Assembly (NCBI GenBank): GCA_947502835.1
Contig: CANNBJ010000002.1
Location: 475,396-539,395 of the forward strand
Length of the DNA stretch: 64,000 nucleotides
From: Bdellovibrionales bacterium
Lineage (GTDB): Bacteria > Bdellovibrionota > UBA1018 > CAIMNF01
Direction of reading: 5' to 3'
Positions within the stretch are counted from its first letter, which is position 1. Every line of letters begins with the position of its first letter. The notes under the pieces are model-generated. The model did no database searches. It was not told the DNA's origin and worked only from the letters and a program-made list of their open reading frames with translations. Positions 2,981 through 56,842 of the stretch are shown here, piece after piece. Position numbers and translations under genes: made by a program.

Positions 2981-3979
2981 TCAGAGCCAACCATTCACCT
3001 TGTACCAGGCAACGGTCTGGGGAACACCGGTTTCAAGGGTGTATTTCGGTTTGAAGGTCAGCTGATCGAAGGCTTTCTGTGAAGAGCAGATCCAGTAATC
3101 TGAAATGAGTTCGTTCAGCTTGTCCCGATTGAGAGGAAGACTGCGATTCAGGAGTTTGCCTGCAATCGTTCCTCCGGATGCGAGAAGGGAGACCAGCGTG
3201 TCCGGAATCTTCACCCGGATGGGCTTCACTTTCAATTCGCTTGAGATGAGGGCCATGATCCGCTCGAATGTGTAGATCTGTCCGTCGCTCACGTTGAATC
3301 GCTCGCCACGCGAGAAGATTCCCGCGTCTGCGGACAGGGAGTTGATCAGCACTTGGATCAGATCATCCACGTGAATCGCACTGTAGTATTTGTGTCCGGT
3401 GGGAGTGCGCGAGGGGAGAACCGGAAGCCAATTCTTTTGAATGGATTTGAAAAACAGATACACGTTCCTGTCTCGGGGGCCGTACACCATGGGTGGACGG
3501 ATCACGATGAAGGGCAGCTGGCCTTTGAGTTCGTCAAGGTACAGCTCGCCCCGAAGTTTGCTCTCTCCGTACATGGAAACCGGATAATCCGGATCCTGTT
3601 CGAGCTTGGGGGCGAGACCAACGCTGGGACCGCTTGCGGCAAGTGAGGAGACGTAGATGAAGCGACTCACACTGCCCGACGAGGCTGCGGCTGACGCAAG
3701 GTTTTTCGTGCCCTCCGCGTTGAACTTGAAGTACTCTTGGCGATTGCGGGCTGCGGTGAGTCCTGCAAGATGAAAAACGACATCCATGTTTTTGCAGGCC
3801 CGCTTCAGGGAATCGGAGTCAAGGATGTCGCCCGTGATCCGTGTGAAGGGCACACCTTTCAGATGGGCTGCGGACGCGCTTGGGCGCATCAGGGCGCAAA
3901 CATCATGTCCTTTCTCGGCGAGTGCAGAGACCAAGCCGCTTCCGATAAATCCACTTGCTCCAGATACCAGGATTCTCAT
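2981..3979 (-). CDS. NAD-dependent epimerase/dehydratase family protein (SDR)
   Basis: The internal start gives MRILVSGASGFIGSGLVSAL (GxxGxxG Rossmann motif) and an SMYGESK-type YxxxK catalytic region. The longer ORF to 4063 would overlap the divergent neighbour. Confidence 0.8.
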   Translation of the reverse strand: MRILVSGASGFIGSGLVSALAEKGHDVCALMRPSASAAHLKGVPFTRITGDILDSDSLKRACKNMDVVFHLAGLTAARNRQEYFKFNAEGTKNLASAAASSGSVSRFIYVSSLAASGPSVGLAPKLEQDPDYPVSMYGESKLRGELYLDELKGQLPFIVIRPPMVYGPRDRNVYLFFKSIQKNWLPVLPSRTPTGHKYYSAIHVDDLIQVLINSLSADAGIFSRGERFNVSDGQIYTFERIMALISSELKVKPIRVKIPDTLVSLLASGGTIAGKLLNRSLPLNRDKLNELISDYWICSSQKAFDQLTFKPKYTLETGVPQTVAWYKVNGWL

Positions 3980-4009: not shown

Positions 4010-4786
4010 ATGCGCGTCACTGTTTTGGGCTGCGGCACCTCGACCGGCGTCCCGTTGATTCACTGTTCTTGCAAAGTGTGTCGATCGAGGAATCCGAAAA
4101 ACAAACGACTTCGAGCTTCGATCTGGGTTGAGGTGGACGGCCTCAGTTTACTCGTGGATGTCTCGCCCGACTTCAGACAGCAGGCGCTTCGAGCACGGAT
4201 TCCGGCAATCGATGCGATCCTCCTCACGCATCCTCATGCCGATCATATTGGCGGGCTCGACGAGATCCGGAGTTACAACTACATCCAGAACAAAGTCATT
4301 CCGGCCTACGGGCACGAATGGAGTCTGCGTGAATTGCCGGCTCGGTTCCCGTATCTTTTTTCCGGAGAAAAACCGGAGGGCGGCGGCATCGCAAAGATTG
4401 AGCTTCGTCCCTTCGGACTCCGGGATTCCGGATTTGAACTTGGTGGAGTGAAGGTCATTCCGATCGAGCTCGATCACGGATCGCAAAAAGTCGCCGGATT
4501 CCGGGTTGGCAATTTTGCGTACCTCACCGATTGCAATTCCATCCCGGAGGAGTCCTTTCAGCGTCTCGAGGGTCTTTCGGTTTTGTTGTTGGATTGTTTG
4601 CGCCTGGATCGGCATGCCACGCATTTGAATCTGGAGGCGGCCATCAATTACTCTCATAGAATCGGAGCCAAGCGCACCTATTTCACCCACCTCGGGCATG
4701 ATTTCGACTACGTTGCGGCTTCACGGAAGCTGCCGGAAAAGCATGGTTTGGCCTATGATGGCCAAGTCATTCATGTTAGAAGATGA
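4010..4786 (+). CDS. MBL-fold metallo-hydrolase (PhnP-like)
   Basis: MRVTVLGCGTSTGVP..., an HPHADHIGG (HxHxDH) motif and a CxC...C cluster near the N-terminus. The upstream part of ORF 3737..4786 is antisense to the epimerase gene. Confidence 0.8.
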   Translation: MRVTVLGCGTSTGVPLIHCSCKVCRSRNPKNKRLRASIWVEVDGLSLLVDVSPDFRQQALRARIPAIDAILLTHPHADHIGGLDEIRSYNYIQNKVIPAYGHEWSLRELPARFPYLFSGEKPEGGGIAKIELRPFGLRDSGFELGGVKVIPIELDHGSQKVAGFRVGNFAYLTDCNSIPEESFQRLEGLSVLLLDCLRLDRHATHLNLEAAINYSHRIGAKRTYFTHLGHDFDYVAASRKLPEKHGLAYDGQVIHVRR

Positions 4787-43721: not shown

Positions 43722-43917
43722 GAACTGCCCCCGAAGAATGGACCTGATTTAAAAGGGTGCCGCACTAAGTGTCCGTTATAAATACGGTTTTTCATGGTTC
43801 ACAGGATCAAAGGTCGGCTGCCTCGATTTTTGAGGAGAGTCCAAGCCAAAAGCGTTCAAATGTACCGGCGCTCGCCCTTCTCTTGGGGGCCTCAGGTCCA
43901 TTCTTCGGGGGCAGTTC
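43722..43917. mobile_element. MITE-like element M1 with IS1-type TIRs
   Basis: GAACTGCCCCCGAAGAATGGACCTGA (left) and TCAGGTCCATTCTTCGGGGGCAGTTC (right) are inverted repeats matching the IS ends at 52153/53149. Length is 196 bp. Confidence 0.8.
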
Positions 43918-44355
43918 CTAGCGGCCACCCAGCTCAAGGATCTTATTGAACAAAATCTCTGGATTCTTTTGATGCCCGAGAACTTCTTTGAGTGATTCCA
44001 GGGCCTTCAAGCCATTCTGGAGTCGTTGGTCATTGAGTTTCACGAGCGAACGCTTGAGGTCACCGGCGTCCTTGGATCCGCTCGGTTTGTAGAGAACCGC
44101 CTTCAAAAGTTGAACCTTCTGCTCCCGGATCTTCGCTTGAATTTCATCATTCTGGACCGTGAGAGTTTCGATGATGGAGATCAGCTTTTTTTGGGTATCA
44201 GAACTGATGGCCTTATCGGCCATCACCACTTCCTTGAGTTGTTTTTCGAGTTCCGCGTCGGCGTAGGCAGGCGAGGTTCCGAGCAGGGAAATCGCGATCA
44301 AGCATGCTTTGGTTCGGGCGAATGGCTTCAATAATCCGAAGGAAATCGTTTTCAT
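43918..44355 (-). CDS. Periplasmic helical protein (possibly Spy/CpxP-like)
   Basis: Signal peptide ending AYA and a helical, K/E/Q/L-rich ~120 aa mature part. The family call is weak. Its stop codon abuts the M1 right end. Confidence 0.4.
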   Translation of the reverse strand: MKTISFGLLKPFARTKACLIAISLLGTSPAYADAELEKQLKEVVMADKAISSDTQKKLISIIETLTVQNDEIQAKIREQKVQLLKAVLYKPSGSKDAGDLKRSLVKLNDQRLQNGLKALESLKEVLGHQKNPEILFNKILELGGR

Positions 44356-44644
44356 GGCCGGATCATACCTGAAATTCGATCAGATCGCGCTTTTTTCCAT
44401 CGCACAGGATGAGGTCACAGGGGAGGGGTGCCGGTTTCGAATCTATATCCTCTATGGATAATCAATACTTACTCACACGGTGGCCCGGGATTTTGCAGCT
44501 GAAAACCACCGTTCGCTCGAGAAATCACAAGGACCATGCGATCCAAAGGTGGTTTTTCAATGAACTCCGCGCCTAAAACCGGAGACGGATGTCCTTGAGT
44601 AAAGTGTGGACTGGCCCGAAAAAAGGGGGCAGTTTAAGGGAGCC

Positions 44645-45784
44645 ATGAAAAATCGAAACATTCGCGATCTCCTCTCCAGGATTGAAACCCGCATTCCTCC
44701 AAAGGCGTCCGAGGATTGGGATCAGGTGGGTCTGATTGTCGGGAACGCAAACCAAAGCTTGCGAGGAGCTGTGGTCGGTGTGGACCTGACCGAGGCACTC
44801 TTGAAAAAGGCCGAAACAACCCGCTCGAATCTGATCGTGATTCATCATCCTCCTCTGTTTCCAAAAGGCCGTGGAATCAATCGTTTGGTTCTCGGGTCGG
44901 GAACGGACCTTCCCACGCTTTTGTTGAAAGCATTTCAAAAAGGAATCTGCGTGTATGTCGCGCACACCAATTTCGATCGGTGCGCGCTCGATGCAATGGC
45001 AAATCTTGCGAAGGATCTGGGAGCAATCCCGCACGCCCGTGTTTGGGAAGAGCCCGAAGAGGGAAAGACGCTTCTCAAGAAGCTTGTGACTTACATCCCG
45101 GTCGATCATTTTGAGGCGGTCCGGGATGCCCTGTATATGGTCGGGTGCGGTCATATTGGAAATTATGATTGCTGTGGATTCGGAATCCCTGGATTCGGAA
45201 ATTTCAGGCCGCTCAAGGGGGCGTCTCCTTTTCTTGGAAAAGTCGGTGAGATGGAAGAGGTGGAAGAAGTTCGACTCGAAACCTTGATCGTTTCCGGAAT
45301 GGAGGAAGTTGCGATCCGAACTCTCAAGGAGGTGCATCCGTACGAGGAGGTCGCCTACGATCTGTACCCTGTGGAGCAGAATCCCGTGATGAAAGGAATG
45401 GTTTGGGGAATGGGGTACGGTTTCGTTGCGGACCTTGCAAAACCCGTATCTTTCGAGTCTTTCGCGAAGAGGGTCAAGAAAGTATTCAAGGTGGATCGCT
45501 TCCTTGCGAATCAAATCACCCCGAAGCAGGTCAAGCGAATCGCGTTCACACCCGGAAAGGGTTCGTCCTTTTTGAAATCGGTGGGCGCCCACGGAGTCGA
45601 TGTGTTCATTACAGGTGAAGTGGGATACCACGGGTCGCTTGATGCTGCTCGAAGGGCACTCAATGTCATCGAGCTCGGGCATCGCGAGAGTGAGCATTAT
45701 TTCCTGAAGACCTTTGAGAGCTGGTTCAAGGAGTGGAAACTTCCCGTTCAAATGCTTGATGAGCGCACGCAGCGGATCCTTTAA
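44645..45784 (+). CDS. Nif3-family dinuclear metal-centre protein (long form with inserted domain)
   Basis: EDWDQVGLIVGN, LIVIHHPPLF, YVAHTNFD and a C-terminal ELGHRESE motif. The opposite-strand ORF 44573..45751 is a shadow. Confidence 0.85.
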   Translation: MKNRNIRDLLSRIETRIPPKASEDWDQVGLIVGNANQSLRGAVVGVDLTEALLKKAETTRSNLIVIHHPPLFPKGRGINRLVLGSGTDLPTLLLKAFQKGICVYVAHTNFDRCALDAMANLAKDLGAIPHARVWEEPEEGKTLLKKLVTYIPVDHFEAVRDALYMVGCGHIGNYDCCGFGIPGFGNFRPLKGASPFLGKVGEMEEVEEVRLETLIVSGMEEVAIRTLKEVHPYEEVAYDLYPVEQNPVMKGMVWGMGYGFVADLAKPVSFESFAKRVKKVFKVDRFLANQITPKQVKRIAFTPGKGSSFLKSVGAHGVDVFITGEVGYHGSLDAARRALNVIELGHRESEHYFLKTFESWFKEWKLPVQMLDERTQRIL

Positions 45785-45788
45785 TTCA

Positions 45789-46679
45789 ATGTTTCATCCG
45801 AGAAATCGCCATCAAGGTCACTACGATTTCGAAGCATTGAAGCGCAGCAGTCCAGACCTATCCCTCTATGTTGCAAATAACATTCATGGGAATCTTTCGA
45901 TTGACTTCACAAATCCAAAGGCTGTGAAAGCGCTCAATCGAGCTCTTTTAGAGGCGTATTACGGAGTCCGGAACTGGGAGTTTCCTGAAGGGTTTCTCTG
46001 CCCTCCGATTCCGGGTCGCGCAGATTACATTCACCATGTGGCTGACCTTCTCGCCGGCGAGAACTCAGGAGAGATCCCCCGCGGAGCCGCTGTGCGGGGT
46101 CTTGACATCGGAGTCGGGGCCAACGGGATCTATCCCATTCTTGGATATTTCGAGTATGGATGGAGTTTTGTCGGGGCCGAGATCAATCCCGAAGCCATTC
46201 GGGCTGTCTCGGCGATTCTTGATTCAAATCCCGCTCTTCGTGAAAATGTGCAAATACGCCGGCAAACAGCTGAGAAGAATATCTTTCACGGAATCATCCA
46301 GTCCGATGAATTCTTCGACTTCTCAGTGTGTAATCCTCCGTTCCATTCTTCCTCCGAGGAGGCGCAGGCGGGCACCCGAAGAAAGTGGAAGAATCTTGGG
46401 AAGCCTGTTGGAAAGAGGCATGAGAAGCAGCTTGCGAACTTTGGAGGACAGGCCCCGGAGCTCTGGTGTGAGGGGGGAGAGATTGCGTTTTTGAAGCAAA
46501 TGATCCTTGAGAGCGGGGATTGCAAATCCCGGTGCCGATGGTTCACCTCGCTGGTTTCGAAGTCCCGTTCCCTCGAGGTTCTTGAGCCCCTGCTCAAACG
46601 CATTGGGGCCCGGGCGGTCCGGGTACTGGAAATGACACAGGGCCAGAAAAAGAGCAGGGTGTTGGCCTGGACCTTTTGA
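45789..46679 (+). CDS. rlmF: 23S rRNA (adenine1618-N6)-methyltransferase
   Basis: MFHPRNRHQGHYDF N-terminus, GLDIGVGANGIYPILG SAM-binding motif and the CNPPFH catalytic motif. Confidence 0.85.
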   Translation: MFHPRNRHQGHYDFEALKRSSPDLSLYVANNIHGNLSIDFTNPKAVKALNRALLEAYYGVRNWEFPEGFLCPPIPGRADYIHHVADLLAGENSGEIPRGAAVRGLDIGVGANGIYPILGYFEYGWSFVGAEINPEAIRAVSAILDSNPALRENVQIRRQTAEKNIFHGIIQSDEFFDFSVCNPPFHSSSEEAQAGTRRKWKNLGKPVGKRHEKQLANFGGQAPELWCEGGEIAFLKQMILESGDCKSRCRWFTSLVSKSRSLEVLEPLLKRIGARAVRVLEMTQGQKKSRVLAWTF

Positions 46680-46871
46680 AGTGCCCCCGAAGATTGGACC
46701 TGGCTGAGAAAGGATTCAACGAAAAGCCCGATGTCAGGGATGGTTTTGTTTGGCCTTGCTCCAAGGCTCCGGCTGCGCGATTTTTTGATCCTGCGATCCT
46801 ATAAAAACCGCATAATTACAATTGGTTGCATTTCCAAATGGCACTTCCAGGTCCAACCTTCGGGGGCACTT
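46680..46871. mobile_element. MITE-like element M2 with IS1-type TIRs
   Basis: AGTGCCCCCGAAGATTGGACCTGG (left) / CCAGGTCCAACCTTCGGGGGCACT (right). It fills the whole gap between the rlmF stop (46677-46679) and the histidine kinase stop (46870-46872). Confidence 0.8.
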
Positions 46872-49554
46872 AGGGGGCCTGAATCATGGCCCAGCATTCC
46901 CTCGGAAACAGCATGGAAACCGTGGTCCCGACATCCAGCATGGAGTCCACCTCAAGACGCGCACCCAGGCTGGTGAGAAACTCACGGGCAGCCCAGAGGC
47001 CAAGCCCGGACCCCTCAGCCTTTCCCCTGGTGAATCCGCGCACTCCCATGTGCTTCAGATCCTCTTCGGAAATGCCTTTCCCTTGGTCCATCACGGAGAG
47101 AATCAGGGATTGATCCTCCGCAAGTCGGACGCTGACCACGATCGCGGATTTGGCGGGAGATGCCTCGATGGCATTGTTCAGTAGATTCGAGATCACCCGG
47201 GCGAAGGTTTCTTTCTTCGCGAACAAACCAAGAGACTCCAGGGATTGATCAAAATCCAGATGGATCGGATTCCGCTTTGAGTGTTCAAGGATTTTCTCAG
47301 AAATCAGTGAATCGAGCGCTGACTTCACAGTCATCATCGAATCCAATGGAATTGCCGCCTTCGAGGCAGGACTCGCACATGTCCCAGAGACGGAATCTTT
47401 CAATCGGGGAGATGGATCAAGAGATGGTGGAATCGCCCTCAAGTCTTTTGCGATCTCTGAAATCCTCTCAACCGATTCGATGAGTGCACGCTTCTCCTCT
47501 GCCGAGACGCCCTCCACTCCGGGCAGGATTGCCCGAAGAACAAATAACGGCGATCGAATGTCGTGTTCCACCTGTTCTGCGGCGCGGATGCGTGAAATCT
47601 GGGCCTCGTGAATCTTCCTGATTTCAAGCAGATCGTCGAGATCACGTTTGAAGGAGGCCAGGTTCGAAGAGAGATTTTCCTCGGTCCTGTGGATGTCCGT
47701 GTTTCTGTTGATCGAATTCAGAATGAGTCCGAGCTGGCTCGACATGGCTCGGGAGAAACGAATGGATGCATACAGGGTTGTCAAGGCGGAGATCAGAAGC
47801 AGGAAGAAAATGATCCCCACTCTTTGTGCAAGTCCCATCCAGAGACTGGAGTGATCAAATGAGAGTTCAAACCAGCGATCCCTTGGGTTGGAAAGGAACT
47901 CTTTTCGGCGGGAAGTTCGGACCTCGGTGTTTCGTCCGGGGGGGCAGGAATGAAACACCCTTCCTCCATCGCTGAATGAGGCACACTTGATGGAGGGATG
48001 ACTTGAGAGGGCGCTGGAAAAATTCTTGAATTCGAACCCGTCTTTTGTTGCGGCTGGATTCTGGAGTGTTTTCCTGATTACGGTGACGATCGCGTCTTCA
48101 CGGCGGTTTGCTTCAAGTCCCGCTTTCACAATGGAATAGATCAACTCGGTACAAAACACCGACAGGAAAACGAAGAGGACCACCCGGCTGACCGCTTGGG
48201 CAATGAGGGATTCGATTGGTTTTGAGGAGGGTTCCTCAAGCGCATGCAAAAGAGCGATCGTAACAGAAGCGATGGTAAAGAGGCAAAAGAGCAGAGGCAG
48301 GGCTGCGCGATGCAGGCCTCCAGCGTCGACACATAACGAAATCAGCCCTAAAAACAGGTGACCGGCCGCTTTTGGGTTTTTCAAAAGGCCGGCGAACTCT
48401 GCCTTTGTTCGTTCCGGAGTTACCGAAATCCGTTTTCCGGTGAATGATCGAAGTGAGGAGTCGAGGGAGTTCCTTTGTTTTCGATTGGCTGGTGCAGGCC
48501 CGGAGATCAGCAGCCCCTCTGAAATAATGCTGGTAAGCAGGGTTGCCACGAGAAGTGTTCCGAACTGCAAAAGAATGCTGTTGTTTCCAAAGGAGAACAC
48601 ACAAACCGAACCTGCGGATAATGCGAAAAGACTCCCGATCCCGAAGGAGAAGCCAGTAGCTGACTCGACTTTCATTAGGCGAAAGAAGAGGACTTCGCGC
48701 AGCAGTTTTCGCAGGAGGATGAATCCCACACTGAAGAAGGGCACTGCAAACGCGAAGAACCTCGGAGAAGGTTCAAGTGTGGCAAAGACCCTGAAAATTT
48801 CGCCGGTGAGATGATTGCTTGATAAGAGTCCCAATGAAACCAGGAGTGTCACCAACCAGAAGTTCCGCTTCCTGCCGGAGGAGGGTTCTTCTTGTCCTTC
48901 GGATTCCTCCCGGCTTTTGTCACTCTTTTCGAAAAACCGGAGGAGAAAGTACTGCGCCAGACTGCAACACAGTGACAGCAGAATCCAAGAAATCCAGAGG
49001 CCGCGCATTGAGCTGTGAGACAAGTCCCGGTGAGCGCTTATGGCCGAATCGGTTCCGAAAAGTCCGGCGGAATGAAAGATCCTTGATGAAAAAGCGGCTG
49101 TACATCCGGCCAGCAGAAACCCGTAAAATCCCGAATGGATGCGGGGAGGAGCCTTGAATGCAAGTGGGGTGATGATTTCACTGAGGCCGCGGATCAAAAG
49201 GTGGATTGCGATGGCGAAAGTGAAATTACCTTCCGAGAATCCCGGGTGAAAGGCGATCGGGACTGTCACGAAAATGCTGATTAGATGGCTGATGTCATCG
49301 TTCAGGTCTCGATGTCGCTTGAAAGGAGTGATGATGCGGAGGATTCCTTTTGCGATGCTGTTTCCATGCCTTTTGTTATCGTGTCTCATGCGATTTTGTT
49401 TTCCGGCTTTTTGGTGAAAGTGTTCATTGGACGAGGTAAGAAGAGTGCACTCGAATCCCTGTCCCTTTGCCTGAAGCCGCACAGGGAGTGGTATCGTCTT
49501 TTGATCTGATCGTTTGTAGAGGGCGGGCTGAACCTTCGAGGAATTCAGCTGCAA
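46870..49554 (-). CDS. Sensor histidine kinase with large polytopic N-terminal membrane region
   Basis: The C-terminal part has an H-box (EQVEHDIRSPLFVL), an N-box (ISNLLNNAIEA) and G-boxes (DQGKGI, GSGLGLWAAREF). The N-terminal ~500 aa contain many hydrophobic segments. The start codon is uncertain. Confidence 0.8.
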   Translation of the reverse strand: MQLNSSKVQPALYKRSDQKTIPLPVRLQAKGQGFECTLLTSSNEHFHQKAGKQNRMRHDNKRHGNSIAKGILRIITPFKRHRDLNDDISHLISIFVTVPIAFHPGFSEGNFTFAIAIHLLIRGLSEIITPLAFKAPPRIHSGFYGFLLAGCTAAFSSRIFHSAGLFGTDSAISAHRDLSHSSMRGLWISWILLSLCCSLAQYFLLRFFEKSDKSREESEGQEEPSSGRKRNFWLVTLLVSLGLLSSNHLTGEIFRVFATLEPSPRFFAFAVPFFSVGFILLRKLLREVLFFRLMKVESATGFSFGIGSLFALSAGSVCVFSFGNNSILLQFGTLLVATLLTSIISEGLLISGPAPANRKQRNSLDSSLRSFTGKRISVTPERTKAEFAGLLKNPKAAGHLFLGLISLCVDAGGLHRAALPLLFCLFTIASVTIALLHALEEPSSKPIESLIAQAVSRVVLFVFLSVFCTELIYSIVKAGLEANRREDAIVTVIRKTLQNPAATKDGFEFKNFSSALSSHPSIKCASFSDGGRVFHSCPPGRNTEVRTSRRKEFLSNPRDRWFELSFDHSSLWMGLAQRVGIIFFLLLISALTTLYASIRFSRAMSSQLGLILNSINRNTDIHRTEENLSSNLASFKRDLDDLLEIRKIHEAQISRIRAAEQVEHDIRSPLFVLRAILPGVEGVSAEEKRALIESVERISEIAKDLRAIPPSLDPSPRLKDSVSGTCASPASKAAIPLDSMMTVKSALDSLISEKILEHSKRNPIHLDFDQSLESLGLFAKKETFARVISNLLNNAIEASPAKSAIVVSVRLAEDQSLILSVMDQGKGISEEDLKHMGVRGFTRGKAEGSGLGLWAAREFLTSLGARLEVDSMLDVGTTVSMLFPRECWAMIQAP

Positions 49555-50073
49555 TTTTTCGATTGGAAATCAGTCGGGCGTGGCGCGAGTGTCGCTGGAG
49601 TCGTTGCTCCTCTCAATGAAAGTAAAACCTCTTGGGCGCCCGCTGAGGAAGGGCGGGGAGAGCTTGAGAGATGGCTTGCCTGAGACTTGCGGTTTTATGA
49701 GCGGAAGCGGATTTGAGCAGTTGATGTTACGTTTGGGTACTTCGGATCTTTTTTTGTGAGTTGGATTCATTGTACAGCCTTTGATCGGAGCGCGAGCGTA
49801 TCAGTATTTTAAATGGGTACAATTTAATAATTCTAATGATCTCCCGGTCCGCGAGGCCGGGTTGGATCAGTCGGAATTCAGAATTGCAGGGACACGATTC
49901 ACCTTTCCTTGCATATTTTTATGGGCAGTTTCGAGTAAGCACCTGAAAGAATTTTGGTTTTTTGCCACGGTTTCAGACTTTCGCATCCCAATGATGCGGT
50001 TCTGGATTTGTCCAGTGTGACACCGGCTCGATGAGTTGACTGATTTTATCAATAATGCAACACTCTGCGTCAA

Positions 50074-50835
50074 ATGTGGTTGGGTCTATTCCTTTTTCAA
50101 CTCTTGGGTGTGGAGTCCCGTATAGTTTCAGGGTGTCACGGTTCGCCTATTGAATCGATGCCTCCAGAAGCGCGCGTTTTGGAGGAGATTCCATCACGAA
50201 GGGGATTTCTGTATCTCCATCGAATTCGGAAGAGAACTCCCACAATGGAGGAAAAGGGGGTGCACCTCAAGTACTGGAAGGCGGTTCTGAAGGCCGCGTT
50301 CCGCGAACACCTTGAGCGGGATCCAACCCCTGCAGAATTTGAGTTCCAAGAGGAGCGCCTGTTGGTTCTGGTCACTGAGCTCGTGAAGCATACCGAATAT
50401 GATGGAGACGGGAATTTCCTGCCACTTCCCTCCCAATCGAGTGACCATAAACTAGTTCGGATTTCAGGGTTCGATGTGATCAATTTGAGAAAGGGAGCGC
50501 TCGAGAATGAGGAGTTTTTCCGATCCAGGTTTCTATGTGTCGAAGGATACTGTTTTGTTCCCGATCTCTTTCATCTCAGGTCTGAATGGGGGACTGTTGA
50601 AAAGGATTTTCTTTTCCTGAGGTCCGATCGAAAGCCTGAAGGGAGGCGTAAAGCGGGATCAGTGAAGTGTCCCACTTTCAAGGATCGGACACGGAAATCT
50701 GTTGGTTTCACCGTGGAGTATCCGAAGAAACGCCATGAGAAAATCAGACTTCACTACCTTTCTGGCACCAGGGAGATGAAGGTCATTCGGACCAGGATTT
50801 TGGATCAGGTTCACTTTCGGTTTTCTGAGGACTGA
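50074..50835 (+). CDS. Hypothetical protein (orphan); start possibly at ATG 50245
   Basis: Long ORF in an AT-richer region. No motifs I can recognise. The downstream two thirds have protein-like composition (MEEKGVHLKYWKAVLKAAFREHLERD...). Confidence 0.4.
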   Translation: MWLGLFLFQLLGVESRIVSGCHGSPIESMPPEARVLEEIPSRRGFLYLHRIRKRTPTMEEKGVHLKYWKAVLKAAFREHLERDPTPAEFEFQEERLLVLVTELVKHTEYDGDGNFLPLPSQSSDHKLVRISGFDVINLRKGALENEEFFRSRFLCVEGYCFVPDLFHLRSEWGTVEKDFLFLRSDRKPEGRRKAGSVKCPTFKDRTRKSVGFTVEYPKKRHEKIRLHYLSGTREMKVIRTRILDQVHFRFSED

Positions 50836-50842
50836 ACTTTGT

Positions 50843-51036
50843 AACTGCTCCCGAAGATTGGACCTCGTCGGGTTCAAAACCGGTCCGAGGTTGCTTTTTT
50901 CCCGGGTTTTTAAACTAGCTTTTTGTGATTTTTCACAACAGCCGTGCTTCCTGAGGATGTCTGCCTGAAAAGGCTTATGGTTACGGGCTGTTATTGAAAA
51001 ACTCGTCTCCTTCAGGTCCAATCTTCCGGGGCACTT
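50843..51036. mobile_element. MITE-like element M3 with IS1-type TIRs
   Basis: AACTGCTCCCGAAGATTGGACCTCG (left) / TTCAGGTCCAATCTTCCGGGGCACTT (right). The right end overlaps the mnmA stop codon (51035-51037). Confidence 0.8.
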
Positions 51037-52126
51037 AGAAAATAACCCCGCCCCCAAGACAGACCTCATCCTGATAAAAAACCACGTATTGCCCGGGCGT
51101 TACTGCGCGTTGTGGAACGGTGAAATCGACGCGTACCGACTGATCCTCCAAAACGGTCACCATGCACTCCTGATCTGCCTGTCGGTATCGAGTCTTCGCG
51201 GTACAGCGGAAGGATTCTTCGGGTGGCTGACCTGAAAACCAATTCAGTTCCCGTGCTGACAAAGAGCTTCGATAAAGCTCCGGATGATCGGTGCCCCGGA
51301 CCACGATGAGTTCATTTCGTTCGATATCCTTTGCCACGACAAACCAAGGTTCGCCCTCCCCTCCCAATCCAAGGCCTTTGCGTTGGCCCAGGGTATAGAA
51401 AGCGACTCCGTCGTGTTTGCCGACAAAATCGCCTTCAATGGTACGGATGTTCCCGGGCTTTGCTTGAACGTATTGGCTGAGAAAGGATTTGAATTTGCGT
51501 TCTCCAATAAAACAGATCCCGGTGCTGTCTTTTTTGGTGCTCGTAGCAAGGTTGTGTTTTTTTGCGATTTCCCTCACCTCGGTCTTGGGAAGATGGCCAA
51601 TGGGGAAGAGGACTCGATCGAATACATTCCCCTTTACTGCTGTTAGAAAGTAGGTTTGATCCTTGAGCGGATCGTTTCCGCGAAGGAGCTCCATCTTGGA
51701 TCCATTCTGGGCAGGAGTGGACCGATCGCGCACTTGGGCGTAGTGACCAGTGGCGAGGAAGTCACAGCCAAACTCCAGAGCTTTCTTTAAAAAGAGATCA
51801 AACTTGATCTCCCGATTGCACAGTACGTCGGGATTCGGGGTGTAGCCTGCCTGGTACTGTCGCAGGAACTCACTGAAAACATGATTTCTGTACTCCTCAA
51901 TAAATTCAATGGAGTAGCAGGGGATGCCGAGCGAGGAGCTGACCTTCTGAACATCTTCGTAATCACGGGTCGCGGAACAGTTGCCGTCCTCGTCCGTTTC
52001 GTCCCAGTTCTTCATGAAAAGGCCAATCACATCATAGCCTTGTTCTTTAAGTAAAACGGCAGCTACGGAGGAATCAACACCCCCCGACATTCCCAGAATG
52101 ACTCTCTTGCCATGGCCGTTTTGCAT
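51035..52126 (-). CDS. mnmA: tRNA 2-thiouridine(34) synthase
   Basis: VILGMSGGVDSSVAAVLLKEQGYDV PP-loop, ATGHYA and KDQTYFL motifs. Confidence 0.9.
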   Translation of the reverse strand: MQNGHGKRVILGMSGGVDSSVAAVLLKEQGYDVIGLFMKNWDETDEDGNCSATRDYEDVQKVSSSLGIPCYSIEFIEEYRNHVFSEFLRQYQAGYTPNPDVLCNREIKFDLFLKKALEFGCDFLATGHYAQVRDRSTPAQNGSKMELLRGNDPLKDQTYFLTAVKGNVFDRVLFPIGHLPKTEVREIAKKHNLATSTKKDSTGICFIGERKFKSFLSQYVQAKPGNIRTIEGDFVGKHDGVAFYTLGQRKGLGLGGEGEPWFVVAKDIERNELIVVRGTDHPELYRSSLSARELNWFSGQPPEESFRCTAKTRYRQADQECMVTVLEDQSVRVDFTVPQRAVTPGQYVVFYQDEVCLGGGVIF

Positions 52127-52152
52127 GAAGGTTTCTTACCACAAATTGCTCG

Positions 52153-53149
52153 AACTGCCCCCAAAGATTGGACCTAATTCTCCACACAGTGACCTAATGC
52201 GCCTTATTCTGGCCTGATTCCTGAAATTCCCAGGGCATGAAATTGAAATGCCCGAATCTTAGCCATGATTTATCAGGTCCCGTTGCCTTTATTCCCCATC
52301 CCATCGTCCGGAAAGGCTACTACAGTCGCAAATCCGACAGTCGTAGGCTCCAGCGATTTCTGTGCAAGACCTGCGGCATCCGGTTCTCTCGCAGTACATT
52401 TAGCAACCGTTACTATCAAAAGGTCCGTCGGATCAATGAGCCGCTTCGCAGGCTTTTCGTGTCCGGGGTTTCCCAGAATCGCGCGGCCCGCATTCTTCGG
52501 GTGAGTCCGAATACAATTGCGAGACGATTTCTGTTTTTGGCGGAAGAAGCAAAGCGTTCACAAAAGAATTTCATTGCGGCGATTCCCAAACGTACCATTT
52601 CGAGCCTTCAGTTTGATGATCTCGAAACAAGCATTCACACCAAGTGCAAGCCCGTGAGTGTATGTCTTGCAGTTGAGTCAAAGACACGAAAAATACTGGG
52701 ATTTCAAGTGAATCAAATGCCGGCAAAGGGAAGGTTGGCGCTGGTTGCGCGAAAAAAATACGGACCACGCAGGGATGAGCGCTCACGCGGATGGAATCTG
52801 CTGCTGAAAGGGATGGGGCTTCTTGCAACAGAGGAGGTTCACATCACATCGGACGAGAACCCGCACTATCCGAAGTGGGTGAAAAGGCATCTTCCGAGTG
52901 CACGCCACACTCGGATCCCGGGTGGACGGGGTGCGATTACGGGGCAGGGAGAGCTGCGGGACAAGCGGTTTGATCCTATGTTTGCATTGAACCATACGTG
53001 CGCCATGCTTCGGGCGAATGTCAATCGGCTATTTCGAAAGACTTGGTGTACGAGCAAAAAAGTGGAGCGGCTTTGGGATCACATCGCGCTCTACGTGGAT
53101 TACCACAACCGTGAATTGACTTTGTCAGGTCCAATCTTCGGGGGCAGTT
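52153..53149 (+). mobile_element. IS1-family insertion sequence (single fused transposase ORF)
   Basis: TIRs are AACTGCCCCCAAAGATTGGACCT (52153-) and AGGTCCAATCTTCGGGGGCAGTT (-53149). The element is 997 bp and carries the transposase ORF. I saw no clear target-site duplication. Confidence 0.8.
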
Positions 53150-53229
53150 GTATCAGGACACGACAGTTTGAAGAGCACCCGATTCAATCGCATCGCACAA
53201 ACTCAGGCAGTGTTCGAGCATCACATTGA
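52237..53229 (+). CDS. IS1-family transposase (InsA-like Zn finger/HTH fused to InsB-like DDE domain)
   Basis: RKGYYSRKSDSRRLQRFLCKTCGIRFS parallels IS1 InsA ([21 protein letters not shown]). NHTCAMLRANVNRLFRKTWCTSKKVERLWDHIALYVDYHN parallels the IS1 InsB C-terminal motif. Candidate acidic residues sit in DDLETS and TSDENPHY. The ORF reads through the right TIR and ends 80 bp outside the element. Confidence 0.8.
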   Translation: MKLKCPNLSHDLSGPVAFIPHPIVRKGYYSRKSDSRRLQRFLCKTCGIRFSRSTFSNRYYQKVRRINEPLRRLFVSGVSQNRAARILRVSPNTIARRFLFLAEEAKRSQKNFIAAIPKRTISSLQFDDLETSIHTKCKPVSVCLAVESKTRKILGFQVNQMPAKGRLALVARKKYGPRRDERSRGWNLLLKGMGLLATEEVHITSDENPHYPKWVKRHLPSARHTRIPGGRGAITGQGELRDKRFDPMFALNHTCAMLRANVNRLFRKTWCTSKKVERLWDHIALYVDYHNRELTLSGPIFGGSCIRTRQFEEHPIQSHRTNSGSVRASH

Positions 53230-54367
53230 TCTGTGCCCGGTCGCCTCCCTGGAGTTTCTGGCTCAGTTCGAATTGACTTTGCATTGTGCGGAGAACGGAG
53301 CTCATCCTGTATTCGAGGCTCGCCTCATTTTTGATTCGCGCATCGGACGCAAGTCCACTCAATTGCTGGGAGATCTTTTCGGAGTTGATGACGATGTCCT
53401 CGATTCTACGCTCGTGGCTGAGTTGGGTGGATTTGAGGCGAATGAGAATCTCCTCAAACTCCTTCAGCCAACGAGCATAGTCGAGTTGTTGTGTTCCAGC
53501 CGAATGTGTGGTTGCGGAGGGAACGGTTGATTGACTCTGGTTTGAAAACTTTTGGAAGAGGCCGGGATTCAGGCGTGTTGCTCCGACTCCAAGGATGAAG
53601 CCGAAGAAAACCACCCCGAAGACCCACGGAAAGCTGTTGCTTCCCCCATTTCCTGATCCGAAGAAATCCCGTTTGATGGAGTCCCGCGATTGCACGGTGT
53701 CCTTCATTGCCTTCATGCTCTCATCGACCGCTGCCCATGCAGCGCCAGTTGAGAGGGAGTTGGAGGGAGCGGGTGAAATCTTCTTTGCGATCGGTTCGAA
53801 CTTCTTGTCGAGAATTCCCCGTTTTGCGATGGCGCGAGCCTGGGGAAACTGACGCGCTTTTCTCAGGGTCATGATTTCCTGCACTGTCACCAGGTATTGG
53901 CTGAATTCGGCTTCCACTCCCCATTGTCTGGGCAGGGGACTTTTCTTGATGGCTTCAAGTTGTTCCAAAAGTGATGCATTCAGTTCGGCCGCGAAAAGGT
54001 CCTTTGGAACCTCATTCACCGGCACTGGCGCAATGCTGGATGGATCCAGGGCCATGGCCCTCCAGAGATTTGACTGGAACCTGACGATTTCGGGCCATTG
54101 GAGATTGTTTTCGGCGGTCGCAGAATCCTTGGAGGACTGGATCGCCCGTTCAAGTTCAGAGAAGGCTTCTTGAAGACCTGCCGGGGGAGCTTCGTGTGAC
54201 ATTGGAGTCTTGGTTTCGCCGCCTTGGTTGCGGGACTCTGAATTCGTGTGGGATTCACCAAAGGCGACACGCGATTCAGACCCGAGGCTCCGCGAAGCGG
54301 TTCCGGCAATTACGATTGCTGCGATGACGATCCATCCGTTGATCTTCATTTGGAAGTCCCTTTCCAT
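53153..54367 (-). CDS. Hypothetical membrane protein
   Basis: N-terminal signal/TM segment, a central TM segment (FPWVFGVVFFGFILGVGA) and helical N- and C-terminal halves. No recognisable family. Confidence 0.5.
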   Translation of the reverse strand: MERDFQMKINGWIVIAAIVIAGTASRSLGSESRVAFGESHTNSESRNQGGETKTPMSHEAPPAGLQEAFSELERAIQSSKDSATAENNLQWPEIVRFQSNLWRAMALDPSSIAPVPVNEVPKDLFAAELNASLLEQLEAIKKSPLPRQWGVEAEFSQYLVTVQEIMTLRKARQFPQARAIAKRGILDKKFEPIAKKISPAPSNSLSTGAAWAAVDESMKAMKDTVQSRDSIKRDFFGSGNGGSNSFPWVFGVVFFGFILGVGATRLNPGLFQKFSNQSQSTVPSATTHSAGTQQLDYARWLKEFEEILIRLKSTQLSHERRIEDIVINSEKISQQLSGLASDARIKNEASLEYRMSSVLRTMQSQFELSQKLQGGDRAQINVMLEHCLSLCDAIESGALQTVVS

Positions 54368-54373
54368 GAATTC

Positions 54374-55597
54374 CTATCGACCGACGATGCGATCCTCTGA
54401 ATGGGAATTGTTTGCCGGCACGGTGCGAACATTCGCAGCCCAGAACACCACTCCGAGCACCAAGAGGGAGTAGGCAAGAAATGCCGGTTTGTTTTGAAAT
54501 ACGGGAGTGTTCACCGATTCTCCGCAGGAGTGGATCTCCTTGATCCGTGATGCTTCGGAGGGATAGAGATTTCCGGATAAAATGCGCAGAACCCGGTTTG
54601 ATGTCCGAATCTTTCCGCAGGAGAGCTTTTCGATCGCAGTCACCAGTGCATCACTGCTTGCGCCCATTCGGACTGCGAGCAAATCAGCCTCGTGTTCCTG
54701 TTTTGTGATCACCTTTGACAGAAAGAATGCTTGGGAAAAGACACTTCCGAAGATCGAAACGGCGATCAGGGGCAGGTTTTTTGGAAAAAGAAAGGCGACC
54801 GGAACCGAGATCCAGAATGCACAGAGAGTCATCAGGAAAACAGAGGAGAAGATTCGCTTGGAGCCGTGATGGTTTTGAGCATGCGCGGCTTCGTGGAATG
54901 CAACAGCCAGAATTTCCTGATGGTTCAACTCACGGATCAAGGGAAGTGTGATGAAGAGGGTTTGCCCCATGAAACCTGCGGCAAGGGGGGATCCGGTGAT
55001 GAAGGCGTTCTTCACCTCCGATTCAGGATCGTCAATCAGGAAGACTCCGGAGAGGGGAATTCCTTCCTCTTTGAATTTCGCCTCGATTTCCAGCCTGAGA
55101 GGGGAATCCGCGAGGGGAGAACATGCATGTTGCATTCGTACGAACAGGGGTGTGAAAAACGGGATCGCAAAGGGCAGAAGCAAGATCGAGAGGTGGAACT
55201 TCGAAAAAAGAAGACACAATCCTGCGCCCACGACGAGTCTGCTGCCGTTCCTCCGGAGGGACGCCAGATGGGTTGCTCGTGTGTGTTCCGGGGTGGGGCG
55301 TACTCTGCGATTCATTTCGGTCTGATATCGACCCGCGAATTGGTACAGGAAAGAAAACGAGATGATCGCAGCAAAGAGCAGAACCATCGCGGAATTCTGG
55401 GAGTTCCGATTGAAGAGAAATCCTCCCGCAAAGAGAATTCCGAAGATCAGCATCGAGAGGCGGGTGGTTTTGTTTTGAACGGTTTCCGCGAGAATCGGCC
55501 GTGTGCGATCGAGCCAATTCTTGAAGTAAAATGGCACTCCCGTGATTCCGGCAATGCAGGTCCAGACTGCGATATGGTTTGAGCTCGGGTTTAACAT
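54374..55597 (-). CDS. M48-family (HtpX/Ste24-like) membrane zinc metallopeptidase
   Basis: AVAFHEAAHAQNHH (HExxH) lies in a polytopic membrane protein, with a later EHEAD segment. Confidence 0.7.
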   Translation of the reverse strand: MLNPSSNHIAVWTCIAGITGVPFYFKNWLDRTRPILAETVQNKTTRLSMLIFGILFAGGFLFNRNSQNSAMVLLFAAIISFSFLYQFAGRYQTEMNRRVRPTPEHTRATHLASLRRNGSRLVVGAGLCLLFSKFHLSILLLPFAIPFFTPLFVRMQHACSPLADSPLRLEIEAKFKEEGIPLSGVFLIDDPESEVKNAFITGSPLAAGFMGQTLFITLPLIRELNHQEILAVAFHEAAHAQNHHGSKRIFSSVFLMTLCAFWISVPVAFLFPKNLPLIAVSIFGSVFSQAFFLSKVITKQEHEADLLAVRMGASSDALVTAIEKLSCGKIRTSNRVLRILSGNLYPSEASRIKEIHSCGESVNTPVFQNKPAFLAYSLLVLGVVFWAANVRTVPANNSHSEDRIVGR

Positions 55598-55682
55598 CCT
55601 TGTCCTCCCGAGGATCAGTTCGGCTGAATTGAGGATTCAATGAAGAGGCAGATTTAGCCGGGTTCCAGGGGGAGGCCGGGTG

Positions 55683-55705
55683 AAGTGCCCCCGAAGAGTG
55701 GTCCC
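55683..55705. repeat. Solo/degenerate copy of the IS1-type TIR
   Basis: AAGTGCCCCCGAAGAGTGGTCCC matches the left-end TIR consensus. No partner right end lies between it and the next gene. Confidence 0.6.
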
Positions 55706-55820
55706 GGAGTCGAGGGTGCGGTCTATATGTGCTGGTAATGATGACGTTTTTCTTGGCGATTGCCTCGCAATCCCGGAATGTTTGGTTTTGCGCGCCGGCA
55801 TAAGTTCAAGGTGAGAGAGG

Positions 55821-56627
55821 CTAGCGAAGACTTTCGATTTCCCCGAGTTCCCGGGAGAGTTGCTCCACGGCCGAGCTTTCCAGTTCGATGGCGCGATCCA
55901 ATCGATCCAAATCGCTCTGCAGGGTTCGGAGTTCGCCTCCCCGGTCTGCATGCGAGCCTTCAAGGCGCGCAATGGCTTTTTTTTGTGCCTTGATTTTTGC
56001 GTTGATGCTGCTTTTTGAGATGTGTTCCCCGGAGGGGTGGGAGTGGGCCTCCAGAAATGCCTTTTGCTCCGCTTGAACCCGTTTTAATTCCTCCCGAAGT
56101 TCGCTCAGGAGGACGGTGTCTTGCATGCGGGGTGACTCATTTGGTGATGTTTCGCGCAGTTTCCGGGGTTTTCCCTTCGGCCGTAAATCATGGATTTGTG
56201 CTTCAAGAGTTCGAAGGCGATCCTTGATCTTTGTGTAGACGGGGTCAATGTTGAGATCCTGTCTTGATTCCTTGAGAGCTACTTTTTGCTCTTGAAGTGA
56301 AGCGAGCTCTGAGCGCATTCCAGAGAGCATGTGTTCGCGCTCGTTCGGATCCTGCGACTCCGCAGCGCGAATCCTTTCTCGCAGCTGATCCCTCTGTGAT
56401 TTTAGACGCGTCAATTGCTCCTTGCGGTGTTCAATGCGGGACCTGATGGAATTGATTCTTGGACCCGGGTCCGACGGGGTGGGGGATGATGCCGGCTGCA
56501 TGGCCGAGGGGGTGCTTTCGGCCTTGCTTGACTCGACGCGCTGTTCCGGTTGGCCTGAGAGCTGGTGGTTTCGATAGGCCAAGAACGCGGCGAGGATCAG
56601 GAGTGCTGGGAGGAGGACCTTGGTCAT
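55821..56627 (-). CDS. Membrane-anchored coiled-coil protein (hypothetical)
   Basis: N-terminal TM segment (VLLPALLILAAFLAY), a P/S-rich linker, then ~200 aa of heptad-rich R/E/L/Q sequence. Confidence 0.5.
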   Translation of the reverse strand: MTKVLLPALLILAAFLAYRNHQLSGQPEQRVESSKAESTPSAMQPASSPTPSDPGPRINSIRSRIEHRKEQLTRLKSQRDQLRERIRAAESQDPNEREHMLSGMRSELASLQEQKVALKESRQDLNIDPVYTKIKDRLRTLEAQIHDLRPKGKPRKLRETSPNESPRMQDTVLLSELREELKRVQAEQKAFLEAHSHPSGEHISKSSINAKIKAQKKAIARLEGSHADRGGELRTLQSDLDRLDRAIELESSAVEQLSRELGEIESLR

Positions 56628-56646
56628 GGCTAGATTTTAACACACC

Positions 56647-56842
56647 AACTGCCCCCGAAGATTGGACCTGGTGAGGGGGCAAGTCTGCTTGAAAAGAGAT
56701 TGTGGGAGGGCATTTTGGAGGAGGTATTTGGCATCGAATCCTGGCAGCCCGTTGATCACCTCAAGTGTGTGGAAAAATGCTCTTGATTTCATTAGCTTAA
56801 AGAGTATCTGCCGTTCCTTGGGACCATTCTTCGGGGGCAGTT
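56647..56842. mobile_element. MITE-like element M4 with IS1-type TIRs
   Basis: AACTGCCCCCGAAGATTGGACCTGG (left) / GGGACCATTCTTCGGGGGCAGTT (right); 196 bp. It lies in the divergent region between 55821..56627 (-) and trxC (+). Confidence 0.8.

Follow-up and report, generated by a model that had tools for sequence, protein, structure and literature searches.

Probable old type II MITEs sharing the ends of an IS1-like insertion sequence in a Bdellovibrionales genome: conserved ends and length, diverged interiors

Elements with common ends at the locus

A stretch of 64,000 nt from the 666-kb contig CANNBJ010000002.1 of a Bdellovibrionales bacterium (hereafter, the window) carries a 997-bp insertion sequence (IS) and, in its neighborhood, four short elements, M1 to M4, that have the same inverted ends and are probably MITEs (miniature transposable elements with inverted repeats). 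The window was scanned with the 20-nt core of these ends, TGCCCCCGAAGATTGGACCT, allowing <=3 mismatches, and dinucleotide shuffles served as the control. The core was matched 11 times, every match being located within 43.7-56.8 kb, and the shuffles gave 0 matches. Ten of the 11 matches pair convergently into five units, namely, M1, M2, M3, M4, and the IS, whose borders were set by the tips AA[C/G]TG...C[A/G... ]TT. Inverted ends of 24 nt, AA[C/G]TGCCCCCGAAGATTGGACCT, are common to M1 to M4, one truncated copy, and the IS, and the MITE ends differ from those of the IS at 52153-53149 by 0-3 mismatches in 20 nt. All end-bearing copies cluster within 13 kb around the IS, and neither the remaining 51 kb of the window nor the 10 kb past its right edge contained a further copy. 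A first-pass annotation, made from the sequence only, had proposed that four elements share inverted ends of ~24 nt with the IS; this was borne out, and its coordinates agree with those given here to within 1-2 nt, but a lone end at 55683 was absent from its list.

M1 (43723-43916, 194 bp) has its ends at 43723-43746 and 43893-43916 and the motif GGCTGCC at its center (43816-43822), and it sits between convergent genes. M2 (46679-46871, 193 bp) has AAGTG tips, which provide, or directly adjoin, the stop codons of its two convergent neighbor genes, and the central motif GGCTGCG (46771-46777). M3 (50843-51036, 194 bp; central CAGCC at 50939-50943) is located such that the stop codon of MnmA falls at its right tip, and M4 (56647-56842, 196 bp; central GGCAGCC at 56743-56749) is placed between divergent genes. 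The four elements are non-coding, since their interiors carry chance open reading frames (ORFs) only. The stop codons of convergent neighbors that coincide with MITE tips are at 46677-46679, 46870-46872, and 51035-51037, and examples are TGA-AGTGCC and the TAA within TAAGTGCC. The window MnmA is 5-9 aa shorter than in relatives, and that of a related lineage (L154) extends nine codons into the right end of M3 (…LSAPEDWT-stop; L154 622-646).

The remaining core match is a left-type end, AAGTGCCCCCGAAGAGTGGTCCC, that is followed by about 113 nt (55683-55820, plus strand) and for which no right end was found. It probably represents a MITE that was truncated and lies at the breakpoint of a rearrangement. 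The variant GGTCCC is common to this end and the right end of M4, and the stretch 55683-55820 shows weak similarity to reversed M3 (z 3.7). Between the lone end and M4 lies a gene for a 268-aa signal-peptide/coiled-coil protein (55821-56627, minus strand), the homologs of which in two related loci (L150 4382-5215 and L153 2155-2976; 31-37% identical) are located on the opposite side of a thioredoxin-MGMT gene pair. The arrangement at 55683-56842 suggests either that the ends mediated a rearrangement or that the whole is a composite unit of 1.16 kb; with a relocated gene enclosed by the lone end and M4, rearrangement through the ends probably also occurs at a larger scale.

The insertion sequence and its transposase

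The IS (52153-53149, plus strand) was recognized by its end matches and is the putative autonomous partner of the MITEs. Its ORF (52237-53229, plus strand) encodes a transposase of 330 aa, which matches the NCBIfam IS1 model NF033558 over residues 35-164 with an E value of 3.7e-11 and a score of 43 bits, as compared to a cut-off of 100; a Pfam search gave no match. All 16 diverse homologs that were aligned (16/16) also matched this model below the cut-off. The family comprises 4378 homologs with a typical length of about 304 aa, which are mostly unnamed metagenomic proteins, some of them from metagenome-assembled genomes (MAGs) of Bdellovibrionales; the MnmA encoded next to the IS shares 85% identity with its counterpart in a Bdellovibrionales MAG. 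An N-terminal Cys4 motif is present, and the homolog alignment revealed the invariant residues C5, C43, and C46, the segment SGVSQ.RAA..L, which resembles a helix-turn-helix (HTH), and the invariant acidic residues D127/D128, D206, and E239. A search of solved structures gave no sequence relative. Based on these features, the protein appears to be a distant DDE-type enzyme of the IS1 family.

The window IS resembles IS1-family members in the model match, the Cys4 motif, the HTH-like segment, the conserved acidic residues, a length of ~1 kb, and ends of ~24 bp. In classical IS1 elements, a -1 frameshift connects two ORFs, the tips are GGT..., and the target duplication measures 8-9 bp, whereas the window IS has a single ORF without frameshift whose stop is located at or beyond the IS end, the tips AACTGCCCCC, and no duplication that could be seen, and its model score is far below the cut-off. 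These differences argue against classical IS1 but not against the wider family, for which single-ORF subgroups are known. The earlier label IS1-type thus suits the enzyme, a probable distant relative, whereas the end sequence gives no ground for it. The tips AACTGCCCCC are conserved across relatives, and the inner half of the end is lineage specific. In the transposase family, the right-end tip codes for the C-terminal ...GGS, and the stop codon usually arises where the IS meets the flank or immediately past this point. In both the window and L154, there is no stop inside the IS, and the ORF extends 26 aa beyond it, where the read-through is antisense to the 3' end of a gene for a 404-aa protein (53153-54367).

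Insertion of the elements

Two related loci, L153 and L150, are syntenic with the window; their MnmA proteins are 83-85% identical, and the gene order is kept. L153 was found to be empty at the M1, M2, M3, and IS sites: at the M2 site, the flanking genes overlap by 4 nt; the distance between the flanking genes is 1 nt at the M3 site and 18 nt at the M1 site; and a 41-nt spacer takes the place of the IS. L150 is empty at the M1 and IS sites and uninformative for M2 and M3, as the genes defining those sites are missing there. No end-like sequence was left at the empty sites of these relatives. The inspection of orthologous loci for empty sites, which had been advised at the outset, thus shows that M1, M2, M3, and the IS are insertions. 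The strains L122 and L123, which are 98.5-99.2% identical to the window, carry every element that they cover.

Conservation of ends and length in an orthologous pair

The lineage L154, which represents the same locus at 82% DNA identity, holds M3 and the IS at the same sites as the window. The ends of the two M3 copies are identical at 23/24 and 21/24 positions (44/48, 92%), whereas their interiors are identical at 74/145 positions (51%) with a single 1-nt gap, so that the element measures 194 bp in the window and 193 bp in L154. The difference in identity between ends and interior is significant (Fisher p 1.4e-7). The identity of fourfold-degenerate sites between the window and L154 is 0.44 for the gene upstream of M3, 0.48 for MnmA, 0.69 for the transposase, and 0.86 for the right flank, and that of the M3 interior is comparable to the fourfold-degenerate codon sites of the left flank. 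This unevenness indicates that the locus is a recombination mosaic with M3 in its old part, and the mosaic pattern over 50390-53478 suggests that the segment bearing the IS was exchanged between lineages by homologous recombination.

About 115 substitutions were inferred for the M3 interior as compared to one indel. At indel-to-substitution ratios of 1:10 to 1:20, which were used as the expectation, the probability of this outcome is about 0.0001-0.02. A left-end variant, GCTCCC, is private to M3 and present in both orthologs, which argues for descent and not for repeated overwriting from the IS. Arm differences between orthologs or paralogs are uncompensated mismatches, with no compensatory pair within the lineage; since it is the primary sequence that is kept, a site bound by a protein is a better explanation than a simple stem of RNA or DNA. 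The M3 pair therefore shows that a long-resident copy loses visible interior similarity yet keeps its ends and its length.

A further copy of M3, in strain L122 (2663-2856), differs from that of the window by ~10% together with its near flanks, without any indel, in a strain that is 99.2% identical overall. Differences are patchy along the 9.5-kb alignment, and a second cluster, which includes a 3-nt indel, corresponds to 56400-56600 of the window. Hypermutation of M3 in this strain was considered and rejected, since divergence of a patchy, recombination-like kind is simpler.

Related elements in other genomes

The ~194-bp class recurs in a second genome. The loci L128 to L131 belong to a relative with a 70%-identical transposase that has its own IS and two elements of 195 bp, R1 and R2. 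The ends of R1 and R2 match those of their own IS in L128 (…GATTGC[G/A]CCT, versus …GATTGGACCT in the window), such that the family tip AACTGCCCCC is followed by lineage-specific inner bases, namely, TTGGACCT in the window and TTGC[G/A]CCT in L128. Since MITE ends match the local IS in both cases, the ends track the resident IS of each genome. The interiors of R1 and R2 look unlike one another, as is the case for M1 to M4. For the seven elements available, i.e., M1 to M4, R1, R2, and the L154 ortholog of M3, the mean length is 194.3 bp with a standard deviation of 1.1 bp. The narrow length band noted initially thus holds in the window (193-196 bp) and recurs outside it, at 195 bp in L128 and 193 bp in L154.

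In L128, R2 is found twice in tandem, 13 bp apart and with identical interiors (3094-3496), whereas L129 (3067-3261) and L130 (3094-3288) hold one copy. Each copy of the tandem is preceded by an 11-bp direct repeat, GGCATCTTACC, and the tip is CAGTT in the first copy and CAGCT in the second. The tandem is either a re-insertion beside an old copy or a 208-bp tandem duplication, the latter explaining the 11-bp repeat equally well. Another relative of the MITEs, Q1 (L124 5063-5233), is 171 bp long and has TCCCCCCGAAGAATGGG ends; at its positions 34-55, the left end is repeated in direct orientation (z 4.5).

Distant relatives of the transposase on long contigs (L126, L132-L141, and L143-L149) were found to be encoded by an IS without any MITE within 10 kb. 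A metagenome scan with the 20-mer core returned, as the sole locus, the M2 site of strain L123, which is 98.5% identical to the window, and two scans of viral contigs for paired cores 131-190 nt apart found nothing. A scan of genome contigs with a looser, 14-base pattern gave chance hits only.

Relationship among the interiors

The first-pass annotation saw no convincing similarity among the interiors of M1 to M4 and called for an all-against-all alignment. This was done for six independent elements (M1 to M4, R1, and R2) from two genomes, and a set-wise score was derived by choosing the best orientation of each element and summing all pairwise global scores. Taken as a set, the six interiors are more similar than mononucleotide shuffles (z 7.1; 0/200 reach the observed score), random window segments of matched G+C (z 5.7; 0/300), and intergenic-like segments, of which the pool was small (z 4.1; 0/300). 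M1 and reverse-complemented M2 share a central 70-nt block in the same register with about 65% identity (z about 8-9), and several other pairs have global z scores of 3-6. In local alignments, most pairs were at background level. The initial impression therefore stands for most pairs taken singly, but it fails for the M1/M2 block, for the set as a whole (z 4-7), and for the GGCWG motif at the center of the elements that is described below. The interiors thus appear to be remotely homologous and not unrelated.

When the interiors were compared, in either orientation, with the 70 subterminal nt of three ISs, no likeness was revealed (z -1.7 to 2.7), as had been stated for the IS of the window. 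An origin of the MITEs as deletion derivatives of the IS was rejected for this reason. As their likeness to the IS is confined to the ends, M1 to M4 class as type II MITEs. This is an established category in which similarity to an IS is limited to the terminal inverted repeats (PMC10969869), which corrects the initial premise that MITEs are internal-deletion derivatives.

Three further origins or roles of the interior were tried and rejected. Copying from other host DNA is not supported, since no match was found in 74 kb of the genome or in related loci. A structured RNA was dismissed because there was no Rfam match and no consensus structure beyond the terminal stem, with z scores of the minimum free energy of -1.7 to +1.2. 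A palindromic (foldback) interior was also rejected by test.

The center of the elements

The pentamer GGCWG/CWGCC is present within 1 nt of the exact center in 6/6 independent copies; in addition to the motifs of M1 to M4 given above, it is part of GGCAGCT in R1 and GGCAGAT in R2. An unbiased scan covered every position and every 5-mer, one two-fold degenerate base being allowed; GGCWG at the center was the only pattern found in 6/6 copies, and 0/150 shuffled sets reached 6. The 22 nt on each side of the center resemble the inner part of an end pointing inward, and this likeness is stronger than that of windows elsewhere in the interior. It corresponds to a best-of-two z of 2.9 (3/1000) and a sum-of-two z of 3.9 (0/1000) when the anchoring bases are left out. 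Internal full-length copies of the end were searched for, and none was individually significant. The clearest case is the center of R2, …CCTTCGGCAG-ATTA-CGAAGATTGGA…, the right part of which fits the window-type end (TTGGA) and not the present ends of its own genome (TTGC), as would be the case for a relic that had ceased to co-evolve with the transposase.

Abutted right-end/left-end (IRR-IRL) junctions occur in IS circles and in tandem IS dimers, for example, those of IS30 and IS911 and the circles of IS1. The center of the elements resembles a worn junction of this type, and the fresh R2-R3 tandem of L128, a head-to-tail pair 13 bp apart, shows that such arrangements arise. Tentatively, the 194-bp unit may be a former head-to-tail dimer of a ~97-bp unit, a possibility that is held to be somewhat doubtful, as it is suggested by the central junction alone and the two halves of the elements lack similarity. 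Furthermore, the central relic amounts to 5-7 nt of clear motif with weak flanks, so that, unlike the junctions of IS circles and dimers, it would be a hypothetical origin and not a demonstrated intermediate.

Nature of the elements and alternative explanations

The data are probably best explained by M1 to M4 being old type II MITEs that were moved in trans by the IS transposase and in which the ends, the spacing, and the center are constrained whereas the interior has drifted. All four would derive from one ancestor of about 194 bp. Insertion would have occurred in the window lineage after its split from the relatives with empty sites and, for at least M3 and the IS, before its split from the L154 lineage. 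The interior would then have drifted neutrally to near saturation and would for this reason look unrelated. The IS1-like transposase may bind the 24-nt ends and move the MITEs in trans, the ends being kept as its putative binding and cleavage sites. The spacing may be kept because the two ends pair across a stiff loop of ~146 bp, which would place the length, and hence the helical phase, under selection, and the end-like central site could aid bending or bridging. Two of the three explanations offered initially can be related to this scheme: old divergence under a length constraint agrees with the remote homology of the interiors and with the M3 pair, and a structural requirement at a fixed spacing agrees with the conservation in place of ends and spacing, but less well in the form of a plain stem.

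In common with other type II MITEs, M1 to M4 are shorter than 500 bp, non-coding, and intergenic, share their 24-nt ends with a co-resident IS, have an interior that is unrelated to this IS, and are matched by empty sites in relatives. Copies of a usual type II family are alike inside, whereas those of the window are saturated, yet their length is held to 1-2 bp and their ends and central pentamer are kept. The Stowaway and Tourist MITEs of plants are likewise tied to Tc1/mariner or PIF elements only by their ends, fall into narrow length classes, and are cross-mobilized; unlike the elements described here, they are eukaryotic, reach high copy numbers, form homogeneous subfamilies, and have TA/TAA target duplications. 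The MITE/IS pair was previously undescribed, but its kind, a type II MITE with an IS1-like partner, is known. It adds an undescribed IS1-like clade, for which metagenomic homologs number in the thousands and a Pfam model is lacking, with its MITEs, from an uncultured Bdellovibrionales-like lineage, and it provides a natural example of elements in which ends, spacing, and a central site are constrained and the remainder is free. Repeat finders that are based on similarity would miss such families, whereas searches by ends and spacing would find them.

Several observations weigh against this explanation. The evidence base consists of six independent ~194-bp copies, two genomes, and one orthologous pair. 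A target-site duplication, the hallmark of DDE enzymes, was looked for at M1 to M4 and the IS, and none is visible, which leaves this hallmark unconfirmed; its lack is nevertheless uninformative, as at least M3 and the IS predate the saturation of neutral sites and a duplication of that age would have decayed. M3 of L154 has a mutated central motif (CGGCC), GGCWG is missing from the center of Q1, the transposase ORF of the window has lost its usual stop codon, and, with respect to the dimer step, no residual similarity was detected between the two halves of each element. Finally, selection for mobility alone does not explain why the ends are kept in a fixed copy until synonymous sites saturate. 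Harm from one-ended copies would be another reason for ends to stay intact in place. If this conservation in place is general, it bears on the vertical persistence of non-autonomous elements outside REPIN-RAYT systems and on what lets very short transposons pair their ends.

It is possible, but unlikely, that the elements and the IS form a long-lived and mostly vertical partnership that resembles REPIN-RAYT systems but is based on a DDE (IS1-like) transposase, with the sites kept by selection through host benefit or through harm from broken copies. In REPIN-RAYT systems, conserved inverted arms flank a spacer, and the non-autonomous elements are associated with a resident transposase gene and persist for long periods (PMC3116915; 10.1101/2021.07.10.451892). 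The window resembles these systems in the inverted conserved arms around a spacer, in the non-autonomous nature of the elements, in the resident transposase gene, and in signs of persistence at fixed sites. RAYTs, in contrast, are HUH (Y1) tyrosine transposases that act on single-stranded hairpins of ~100 bp, whereas the window enzyme is DDE/IS1-like and the spacer, of ~146 bp, is free to vary. Such a partnership would account for the conservation of M3 ends and length in place beside a neutral interior, for the finding that two lineages carry the IS at one common site, its ORF of 330 aa being intact and 86% identical in amino acids, and for the shared GCTCCC variant, which speaks against overwriting from the IS. 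In addition, exact-match look-ups of the transposase gave the same neighborhood in every sample among the relatives' loci fetched, and persistence of this type is documented for REPIN-RAYT (10.1101/2021.07.10.451892). However, persistence at orthologous sites is seen for M3 and the IS in one pair only, that of the window and L154. The fourfold-site identities of 0.48 in the left flank, 0.69 in the IS, and 0.86 in the right flank indicate recombination and not strict vertical descent, and in more distant relatives the IS is found at different sites. A true DDE counterpart of REPIN-RAYT, in which a resident transposase and a small set of three-site elements (left end, end-like center, and right end, with fixed spacing) persist together for very long periods, selection keeping the sites in place and leaving the DNA between them free, is unlikely to the same degree. 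If it were to exist, the ~194-bp units would be protein-DNA architectural modules and not decaying parasites.

Less probable again is that the elements are cis elements exapted by the host, with the 24-bp arms acting as an RNA or DNA stem, for example, as a bidirectional terminator or an RNase III site. In favor of this, M1 to M3 fill gaps between convergent genes, no consensus structure other than the terminal stem (-40 kcal/mol) exists, and the ends are conserved in place. M4, however, is located between divergent genes, and no enrichment of terminator-like or promoter-like sites was found in the elements. A stem would need neither a fixed loop length nor a central motif, the arm mismatches are uncompensated, and what is conserved is a primary sequence identical to the IS ends.

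Slightly less probable than exaptation is that M3 was acquired twice, by separate insertions into one hot spot in the lineages of the window and L154; its conserved ends would then reflect recent mobility and not conservation in place. A target preference is conceivable, given that 3/4 copies are at the 3' ends of convergent genes, but the left junction is at the identical nucleotide in the window and L154, the private GCTCCC variant is shared, and the interiors of the two orthologs can be aligned in register (z 7.3) and are closer to each other than M3 is to any paralog.

The third of the initial explanations, that pairs of ends independently captured unrelated DNA while a ruler-like mechanism set the length, is very improbable and largely refuted for the ~194-bp elements: most pairwise interior alignments at background level, the lack of relationship of the interiors to the IS, and the relocated gene bracketed by the lone end and M4 would be compatible with it, but the shared register, including that of the M1/M2 block, the central motif common to 6/6 copies, the set-wise similarity under three null models, and the absence of matches to the interiors elsewhere in the genome and related loci oppose it, and the M3 pair demonstrates that drift in place yields equal dissimilarity.

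Further observations at the locus and in relatives

An exact, isolated AACTGCCCCC tip is present at 44625-44634 on the minus strand, just upstream of the start of a NIF3-family gene. It has neither inner end sequence nor partner and is either due to chance (about 0.1 expected) or a remnant. In the related loci L150 (2244-4381) and L153 (600-2154), no gene was called in the 0.3-0.95 kb that come after a reverse-transcriptase gene of the RVT_1 family. This RVT_1 region has no counterpart in the region of the window that was examined, and in L150 it contains a lone end-like sequence at 4350-4364.

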